22,436 nucleotides of DNA from Candidatus Hodarchaeota archaeon (lineage in GTDB: Archaea; Asgardarchaeota; Heimdallarchaeia; Hodarchaeales; Hodarchaeaceae): NCBI GenBank assembly GCA_029856365.1, contig JAHQWW010000058.1, positions 1-22,436 on the forward strand, given 5' to 3'. This document shows positions 3,613-22,436 of this stretch, piece by piece. Position numbers and translations under genes: made by a program. Positions within the stretch are counted from its first letter, which is position 1. Each line of letters starts with the position of its first letter. Under the pieces are notes generated by a model that saw nothing but the letters and a program-made list of their open reading frames with translations, had not been told where the DNA came from and did no database searches.

Positions 3613-4593
3613 TTAGTTCAAATAACTTTCTTTGGGAAAATCCGTCAGGACTTGTTGTGCTACTGCTTTGGCCATTAATGGAGGTACACTTTCTCCAACC
3701 TGATTATATTGTGAATTTATGGGACCATAGAATTGAAAATTATCAGGATAGCTCATTAAACGAGCATGTTCCCGTACTGTACAAAGACGAGGATCATAGG
3801 GGTGAATAAATCGACTTTTCCCCATTACGGTAGGACTAGGATAATTAGCTTGTAAACGAATAAAATTGCGAAAAGATCCTCTGTGACTCCCCTTAAAATA
3901 AACAATAGCTCCTCCTGGGGGCGTCTTAGAAATCTTCCTAGTGATTTTAGGAGAAAGAGGTATGAATTCGTGATTTATCATTTCAATTCCTGGATCAGGA
4001 AGAGAGTGAAAAGCATCATTTACAGAAACAGATGAAGTGGTGGGAAATAATTTCACTTCAATATTCGAGATAAAAACTCTTTTTCGTTGGCTTGGTACCC
4101 CAAAATCCTCGGCTTTAAGAATATTGAAATACACTGATTCATATTTAGAACGAGAAAATTCATGTAAAATTAATCCTATCATCTCAGTTGAGGCCAATTG
4201 GGGGACATTTTCTATTAAAAATACCTTGGGTTCTATATCAATGATGATACGTATCGTGTCCAGAACCAGACGCCCTATCTCATCCGCATAAAGCTGATTA
4301 TAAGCTGACCTCTGTCGATTGGGATTTGCTACTGAAAATGATTCACAGGGGGGACTAGAAATGATTATATCAGGAGGTTGATCATCTAGTAGTTTAAGAA
4401 TATCATTTGAGTGGACTTCTTCTATGTTTTTGTTATATACTTGACTTGTGATGTTTTCGCTGTAAGTTTGAAGTGCCCTAAAATCATTATCGATCGCTAA
4501 GACAACATTATTTCGGGGATTTGCTAGAAGAAATCCACACGCAAAGCCTCCAGCACCACAAAATAAATCTAATATCCTCATTCTAATCTTCAA
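3613..4593 (-). CDS. cytosine-C5 methyltransferase (orphan, Dcm-like)
   Basis: Motif I LDLFCGAGG, catalytic SPPC, ENV, QRKRVF, motif IX/X REHARLMSYPD...QVGESVPP; TTG start overlaps upstream stop (TTGA), alternative ATG 4581. Confidence 0.92.
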   Translation of the reverse strand: MKIRMRILDLFCGAGGFACGFLLANPRNNVVLAIDNDFRALQTYSENITSQVYNKNIEEVHSNDILKLLDDQPPDIIISSPPCESFSVANPNRQRSAYNQLYADEIGRLVLDTIRIIIDIEPKVFLIENVPQLASTEMIGLILHEFSRSKYESVYFNILKAEDFGVPSQRKRVFISNIEVKLFPTTSSVSVNDAFHSLPDPGIEMINHEFIPLSPKITRKISKTPPGGAIVYFKGSHRGSFRNFIRLQANYPSPTVMGKSRFIHPYDPRLCTVREHARLMSYPDNFQFYGPINSQYNQVGESVPPLMAKAVAQQVLTDFPKESYLN

Positions 4594-18791: not shown

Positions 18792-18990
18792 GGGGACGTA
18801 GCGAAGCTAGTGGTCTTACTAAAAGCTAGCAAGACCGGACAAGTATCGCGCCGGGCTCCAGAACCCCCTGTGAACTCCACTGGGTTAACTGAAACTCATG
18901 ATGAAGTTCTGGAAAAATGAGGAAACTCGGTGTCACCTCTGCTGGTTGCAAGGTGTCCGAACATCGCCGGTTCAAATCCGGCCGTCCCCA
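18792..18990 (+). tRNA. tRNA-Trp(CCA) with three introns (about 18811-18842, 18862-18924, 18933-18962)
   Basis: Acceptor GGGGACG/CGTCCCC-A; D stem GCGA/TCGC; anticodon stem CCGGG/CTCGG with CT-CCA-G; T arm GCCGG-TTCAAAT-CCGGC; removing the three inserts gives a normal cloverleaf. Confidence 0.9.
18862..18924 (+). ncRNA. intron-encoded box C/D guide RNA of pre-tRNA-Trp
   Basis: D' CTGA 18889-92, C' ATGATGA 18898-904, D-like ATGA 18917-20; guides complementary to the host anticodon arm, +5 positions fall on C39 and C34. Confidence 0.85.
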
Positions 18991-20301: not shown

Positions 20302-20406
20302 GGGCCAGTGGTGAAGTTGGTATCACGCCGCCTTCGCAAGGCGGAGTATTCATAGGGTTTGCCCTTGGATGACCGCAACCCCCGAGTTCGAGTCTCGGCT
20401 GGTCCA
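20302..20406 (+). tRNA. tRNA-Ala(CGC) with a variable-loop intron (about 20347-20378, position 45/46)
   Basis: Acceptor GGGCCAG/CTGGTCC-A with the G3:U70 alanine determinant; anticodon arm CCGCC-TTCGCAA-GGCGG; T arm CCGAG-TTCGAGT-CTCGG; 32-nt hairpin insert. Confidence 0.92.
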
Positions 20407-22223: not shown

Positions 22224-22436
22224 GCCGGGGTTTAGTACATATCTTCATTTAGAGTACTCATGAAGTATTACTATCCGAGAGCCAAGCGGACGGGTTAGTG
22301 TTTATCCATTTCCCTGCAGTACGGCGCTGGCCTTGAGTTATTAAAGAGAATTGAAATGCAGCACTAGAAAGCCAGTGTACTTATTGTACTCGAGGGTTCG
22401 AATCTCAGGATGTTATTATCCTGAAAGAAAATCCCT
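22224..22436 (+). tRNA. tRNA-Ser(UGA) with at least four introns; 3' end beyond the window
   Basis: Exons: GCCGGGGT (22224-31) | AGCCAAGCGGAC (22280-91) | TACGGCGCTGGCCTTGAG (22320-37) | AGCCAGTGTACTTATTGTACTCGAGGGTTCGAA (22370-402) | TCCCT (22432-36); joined they give D stem GCC/GGC, anticodon stem CTGGC/GCCAG, long variable arm GTAC/GTAC and T arm GAGGG-TTCGAAT-CCCT. Confidence 0.85.

Follow-up and report, generated by a model that had tools for sequence, protein, structure and literature searches.

In archaea, tRNA genes with several introns were reportedly described in the Thermoproteales by Sugahara et al. in 2008, and the tRNA genes of this group reach a maximum of three introns. Split and tri-split tRNAs are found in Nanoarchaeum equitans and Caldivirga maquilingensis. 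Permuted or multi-intron tRNA genes occur in Cyanidioschyzon merolae (PMC3728597). Among the Asgard archaea, the complete Atabeyarchaeia and Freyarchaeia genomes reported in 2024 have introns in 92 to 95% of their tRNA genes, and more than half contain several (PMC11291895). A census of 90 Asgard genomes, presented in an October 2026 preprint and made without using the splicing motif, found up to five intervening sequences per gene, an enrichment of bulge-helix-bulge (BHB) boundaries and repeated gains and losses. In the same census tRNAscan-SE systematically missed inserts in the D arm, two EndA paralogues were present in most genomes, and several lineages of the Heimdallarchaeia had fewer than one insert per gene (10.64898/2026.10.13.758758).

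The gene described here belongs to this series. We read it, with a probability of roughly 0.9, as the functional gene for tRNA-Ser(UGA), and probably the sole one, in an Asgard archaeon of Hodarchaeales type (class Heimdallarchaeia); its precursor, about 222 nt in length, would be spliced at four introns to an 85-nt class II tRNA. Like the genes of the two Asgard reports (PMC11291895 and 10.64898/2026.10.13.758758), it has several short introns, many of them at non-canonical positions in the D and T arms, with BHB-type boundaries; its D-arm insert is missed by standard annotation, the genome encodes two EndA paralogues, and the intron positions were repeatedly gained or lost. Those reports centre on Jordiarchaeia and Atabeyarchaeia, whereas the present gene comes from a genus whose records are named Hodarchaeota or Heimdallarchaeota, and has four inserts as against a maximum of five. 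As in the Thermoproteales, where such genes are processed by a two-subunit EndA of broad specificity, the gene is encoded in cis and has BHB introns at canonical and non-canonical positions. It differs from the genes of that group in belonging to another phylum, in having four introns instead of up to three, and in the absence of second intron copies, in contrast to the related introns that recur between genes in Thermoproteales. The original prediction had placed four or more introns in one gene at or beyond the known extreme. This part of it is contradicted by the Asgard genes with up to five intervening sequences (10.64898/2026.10.13.758758) and by the multi-intron genes described in 2024 (PMC11291895). 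The locus adds a verified and rather extreme case from a Hodarchaeales-type genus; it is neither a new kind of gene nor a record in intron number.

The window, that is the whole stretch of DNA that was analysed (22,436 nt), is the entire contig C65 of an assembly of 204 contigs (4.24 Mb, 35% GC, 83.6% complete), and it ends inside exon 5 of the tRNA-Ser(UGA) gene. In its last 213 nt, AT-rich inserts alternate with GC-rich blocks. The gene, which lies 3′ of a conserved gene for a 151-aa membrane protein, is divided as follows, where C81 is another contig of the same assembly and the 21 genes are the present one and its 20 syntenic copies.

22224 to 22231, plus strand: exon 1, the acceptor 5′ strand (G1-G7) and U8; invariant in 21 of 21 syntenic genes; pairs with CCCCGGC at C81:11-17.
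22232 to 22279, plus strand: intron 1, 48 nt, at position 8/9, with a full hBHBh′ motif.
22280 to 22291, plus strand: exon 2, A9, the D stem 5′ strand and the D loop up to about 20a; conserved throughout the 21 genes; joined directly to exon 3 where other families have an intronless Ser(UGA) gene.
22292 to 22319, plus strand: intron 2, 28 nt, in the D loop (about 20a/20b), with an HBh′ motif lacking the outer helix.
22320 to 22337, plus strand: exon 3, the remaining D arm, G26, the anticodon stem 5′ strand and the loop C32-G37 with the anticodon UGA.
22338 to 22369, plus strand: intron 3, 32 nt, at the canonical position 37/38, with a relaxed motif.
22370 to 22402, plus strand: exon 4, A38, the anticodon stem 3′ strand, the long variable arm (GUAC stem), the T stem 5′ strand and the T loop up to A59.
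22403 to 22431, plus strand: intron 4, 29 nt, in the T loop at 59/60, with an hBHBh′ motif that has one mismatch.
22432 to 22436, plus strand: the first 5 nt of exon 5, U60 and C61-U64; the other 9 nt (C65, the acceptor 3′ strand and G73) are C81:10-18.

All five exons follow one another in order on the same strand, in a span of about 222 nt, and nothing is trans-spliced or permuted. This sets the gene apart from split and permuted tRNAs, although it shares with the split and tri-split tRNAs of Nanoarchaeum equitans and Caldivirga maquilingensis and with the genes of Cyanidioschyzon merolae that the mature tRNA is put together from several pieces through BHB-like junctions.

The original prediction had called for a 3′ end of the form C-CCCCGGC-G beyond the window. 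When the predicted CCCCGGC was sought close to contig ends, it was found at the start of C81. The first 9 nt of this contig repeat the end of the window (22428-22436 = C81:1-9); C, CCCCGGC and G follow, as closing base of the T stem, acceptor 3′ strand and discriminator, respectively. Over its first 1500 nt, C81 runs collinear with the DNA directly 3′ of the orthologous gene in 7 relatives (81-89% identity), and the alignment to these relatives begins 10 nt ahead of the acceptor 3′ strand. Exact matches to longer stretches of the window end (its final 15 to 60 nt) were absent from the other contigs of the assembly. The 9-nt overlap together with the synteny supports the adjacency of C65 and C81, the assembly having apparently broken inside the tRNA gene.

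The four inserts had been proposed at position 8/9, in the D loop (about 20a/20b), at 37/38 and at 59/60, and their coordinates proved exact: their removal yields an 85-nt product of five joined exons that ARAGORN calls tRNA-Ser(tga) of class II. The assignment is upheld both by this call and by the alignment of the 21 genes. The ARAGORN fold comprises an acceptor stem of 7 bp, a D stem of 3 bp, anticodon and T stems of 5 bp each, and a long variable arm. Besides this arm and the anticodon UGA, the product has the conserved core bases of a class II tRNA-Ser, with U8, A14, G18 G19, U33, the T loop GTTCGA and C61. The gene encodes no CCA. When ARAGORN and the Rfam tRNA model were run on the window in its interrupted form, two other tRNAs were found and none at the tRNA-Ser(UGA) locus, in agreement with the expectation that standard finders would be blind to the gene. 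The Rfam tRNA model also missed the interrupted orthologues in the relatives L023 and L028.

To place the junctions by comparison, the gene was aligned with 20 copies collected by synteny with the 151-aa membrane-protein gene. These come from congeneric MAGs and from CP070665.1 and CP070695.1, two records of a single contig each, under the names Hodarchaeota, Heimdallarchaeota or Promethearchaeota; the records named Hodarchaeota or Heimdallarchaeota bear out the assignment of the window to an Asgard archaeon. Across the 21 genes the mean pairwise identity is 94% in exon columns and 55% in insert columns, and the inserts vary in sequence, length and presence. Exon 3 has only two variable columns (about 20b and 22), and the anticodon stem and loop are invariant in all 21 genes; exon 4 is conserved apart from the loop of the variable arm. 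The T stem shows two compensated pair changes in L030 and L032. Taken together, these comparisons demonstrate purifying selection acting on the spliced tRNA sequence.

None of the 21 genes lacks intron 2 or intron 3. Intron 1 is cleanly absent from seven of them, in which GCCGGGGT joins AGCCAAG directly, and intron 4 is cleanly absent from 13. All four introns occur together only in the window genome and in its closest relative L023 (CP070665.1). Uninterrupted Ser(UGA) genes occur in other families of Heimdallarchaeia, where they score 60.2 and 52.4 bits with Rfam RF00005, and their D arm, AGCCAAGYGGAC[T/A]ACGGCG, corresponds to the predicted splice of exons 2 and 3. Removal of the inserts thus restores a canonical tRNA, with junctions that agree with those of intron-free homologues, in congeners for introns 1 and 4 and in other families for introns 2 and 3. 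Because introns 1 and 4 are either present or cleanly missing, and because compact genes exist in other families, all four junctions are fixed independently of the splicing motif.

The motifs were then scored without alignment, starting from the splice sites, with a central helix of 4 nt placed 2 nt short of each cut, bulges of 3 nt, and an inner and an outer helix. In BHB motifs, each cut falls after the second bulge base. Proposed and shifted junctions were compared on a boundary grid over all carriers of each intron, and for introns 1 and 2 the motif signal appeared at the proposed junctions only. Intron 1 has the sole full hBHBh′ motif of the four in this genome. Its central helix is formed by C3-G6 with UCCG at the intron 3′ end (4/4 pairs here and in 13 of the 14 carriers), the bulges are GU/U and AG/A with the cut at the slash, the inner helix has 5 bp (mean 4.6 over the carriers) and the outer helix 2 bp (G1-C2 with G10-C11). 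In intron 2 the central helix is GCGG/CUGC, which had been predicted as GCGG/CTGC in the DNA and is indeed present; it has 4/4 pairs here and in 16 of the 21 genes and at least 3/4 in all 21. No other cell of its grid exceeds two of the 21 genes with 4/4 pairs, and position 16 covaries with its partner (C-G, U-G, U-A). The inner helix of intron 2 has 2 bp (mean 2.4), and an outer helix is absent in all 21 genes.

The other two motifs are less regular. The central helix of intron 3 has 3/4 pairs here, with a U34-U mismatch, and 1/4 in some relatives; its outer helix is the anticodon stem and its inner helix comprises 1 bp, the intron is highly variable in sequence, and another cell of the grid outscores the proposed junction. 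A boundary at 36/37 was ruled out for this intron, as position 37 would then be U or C in seven relatives, whereas the 37/38 reading gives an invariant G37. Intron 4 pairs U54-G57 with AGAA, with 3/4 pairs here (G57-A mismatch) and 4/4 in four of the eight carriers. Its outer helix is the 5-bp T stem, and its inner hairpin, predicted and found as TCAGGAT/ATCCTGA, has 7 bp here after a C-A mismatch and 7-9 bp overall. The proposed junction of intron 4 stands out in the grid only when the flanking helices are counted.

The four BHB modules lie on disjoint exon segments (1-11, 15-20b, 27-43 and 49-65), each with its own intron, and can be drawn in one structure with no shared bases. The original prediction had concluded from splice helices that use exon bases needed for the cloverleaf that splicing must be ordered. 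Such competition is seen for the motif of intron 1, which alone competes with the cloverleaf (acceptor and D stems), but it does not imply an order: with no base common to two motifs, splicing need not follow a fixed sequence of steps.

The enzymes expected for such a pathway are encoded. Two EndA-domain proteins match PF01974 with 93.5 and 61.1 bits; in the paralogue of 183 aa the active-site Tyr, His and Lys are all kept, and the paralogue of 210 aa lacks the active-site His. An RtcB ligase is found with 545.6 bits. The two paralogues match the two-subunit arrangement reported for the EndA of Asgard archaea, which accepts HBh′ and other relaxed motifs, its broad specificity being conferred by the L1 loop (PMC5829648). 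The gene structure, its exact boundaries, the motifs in their full or relaxed forms and the presence of the enzymes are shown by the genome sequence, and we infer that the RNA is made and spliced, with EndA as the putative enzyme for all four introns. In the proposed pathway, a precursor of about 222 nt would be transcribed with the four short introns still in place, each of which would form, with the neighbouring exon bases, a local bulge-helix-bulge or a relaxed variant of it. The two-subunit EndA would cut in both bulges, RtcB would join the exons, and the resulting 85-nt class II tRNA would gain its CCA post-transcriptionally.

Not all of these motifs are of the classical type, and in a working gene the D-loop or 37/38 insert may be recognized by way of the mature tRNA body, which is how eukaryotes do it, or be excised by a different pathway. 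The outer helix missing from intron 2 throughout the 21 genes would fit this, as would intron 3, which in most relatives has 1 to 3 of the 4 central pairs and whose junction is not the best cell of the grid; moreover, canonical motifs were found at only about one third of D-arm inserts in the Asgard census (10.64898/2026.10.13.758758). However, the complete central helix of intron 2 in 16 of the 21 genes and the covariation at position 16 occur at the very junction that the compact relatives demand. HBh′ and relaxed motifs are, in addition, accepted substrates of the two-subunit Asgard EndA (PMC5829648), two paralogues of which are present here. We therefore consider a non-classical removal of either insert unlikely, and attribute all four excisions provisionally to EndA.

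The organism would also need the gene. TCA makes up 27.5% of the serine codons (19.4 per 1000 codons in 962 long reading frames) and is one of the two commonest serine codons. That the genome holds no other tRNA-Ser(UGA) had been part of the original prediction, and none was seen in the 83.6%-complete assembly by ARAGORN (31 calls), by Infernal (28 hits) or by BLAST with the spliced sequence; the same searches found Ser(GGA) and Ser(GCU). In the single-contig congener CP070695.1 (G009, 96% complete), the Rfam tRNA model detected with Infernal only 28 tRNA genes, a number well short of a complete set. Neither Infernal nor ARAGORN found a Ser(UGA) gene in it, and the sole candidate is the interrupted syntenic gene. 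A large share of the tRNA genes of CP070695.1 is probably hidden by multiple introns.

These data bear on the possibility that the locus is a decaying pseudogene whose role is filled by another Ser(UGA) gene, compact or with fewer interruptions, in the 16% of the genome that was not assembled. The completeness of the assembly leaves room for such a gene, and imperfect motifs are found at two of the four introns here. Against it stand exons that are near-invariant over 21 species while the inserts diverge, the compensation of the T-stem changes, and the same four-intron gene in L023. Since Ser(UGA) was found only in interrupted form both in the assembly and in CP070695.1, and since TCA is a major codon, the pseudogene reading is very unlikely. 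An assembly artefact, in which the end of the contig is chimeric or C65 and C81 are wrongly joined, would account for a contig that breaks inside the gene and for an overlap of only 9 nt; yet the same architecture and the same downstream gene are found in independent assemblies, including the two single-contig records CP070665.1 and CP070695.1, so that we regard this explanation as extremely unlikely. A working tRNA-Ser(UGA) gene with four introns accordingly stays our preferred reading.

Other interrupted tRNA genes were noted in the same genome. In the window, tRNA-Trp(CCA) at 18792-18990 (plus strand) has three inserts, in the D loop (about 18811-18842), in the anticodon loop (63 nt) and in the variable region (18933-18962), and their removal gives a 76-nt product according to ARAGORN. 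Within the 63-nt anticodon intron, ATGATGA and CTGA look like C and D boxes, such as those of the known tRNA-Trp intron guide RNAs of other archaea. Also in the window, tRNA-Ala(CGC) at 20302-20406 (plus strand) reaches 53.8 bits against Rfam; no insert interrupts its anticodon arm, and one of about 32 nt lies in the variable region after this arm and not at 37/38. On contig C24 (minus strand, about 3660-3795), a tRNA-Ser(CGA) gene, missed by ARAGORN and Infernal, was recognized by eye with introns at 37/38 and 59/60. Its T-loop intron uses the same 59/60 site as that of tRNA-Ser(UGA), with a central helix UUCA/UGAA of 4/4 pairs, likewise judged by eye. A Thr(UGU) gene on C33 has a T-loop insert, and an interrupted Phe gene of 159 nt lies on C79.

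The intron pattern was also followed within the genus, on a weakly resolved tree of a single neighbouring gene (450 columns), which places the window genome inside a well-supported clade of nine species. The introns at 8/9 and 59/60 are both polymorphic within this clade, and over the 21 taxa each requires at least four changes on this weak single-gene tree. Both thus appear to have been gained or lost precisely, several times within the genus. The identity between the two subclades is 84% for the T-loop intron, 75% for the D-loop intron and 58% for the anticodon (37/38) intron, values that fit vertical descent under differing structural constraint. A recent lateral spread of the T-loop intron, suggested at first by its seemingly unusual conservation, was ruled out, because its 84% identity fits the vertical descent of a mostly base-paired 29-mer. 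Transposition of introns between tRNA genes was rejected as well: no second copy of any of the four was found in the genome by BLAST, which returned short matches at chance level (best non-self E value 0.05). As to direction, we would suggest only tentatively, and with more doubt than confidence, that the four-intron state was ancestral to the nine-species clade and that precise loss was the main process, the sister species having lost the 8/9 or the 59/60 intron.

In summary, tRNA-Ser(UGA) is the only tRNA found that can read TCA in this genome, and it is encoded by a gene that ARAGORN and the Rfam tRNA model do not see. Together with the 28 tRNA genes detected in CP070695.1, this indicates that genomes of Hodarchaeales type seem to lack tRNAs at least partly because multi-intron genes escape annotation. 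The comparatively verified junctions at the unusual 8/9 site, in the D loop and in the T loop provide test cases for intron-aware tRNA finders and substrates for probing the range of Asgard EndA. How BHB introns leave or enter tRNA genes is called open in the Asgard census (10.64898/2026.10.13.758758). If the proposed history of the 8/9 and 59/60 introns is true, the locus would offer a natural series for this process in the archaeal order closest to eukaryotes.
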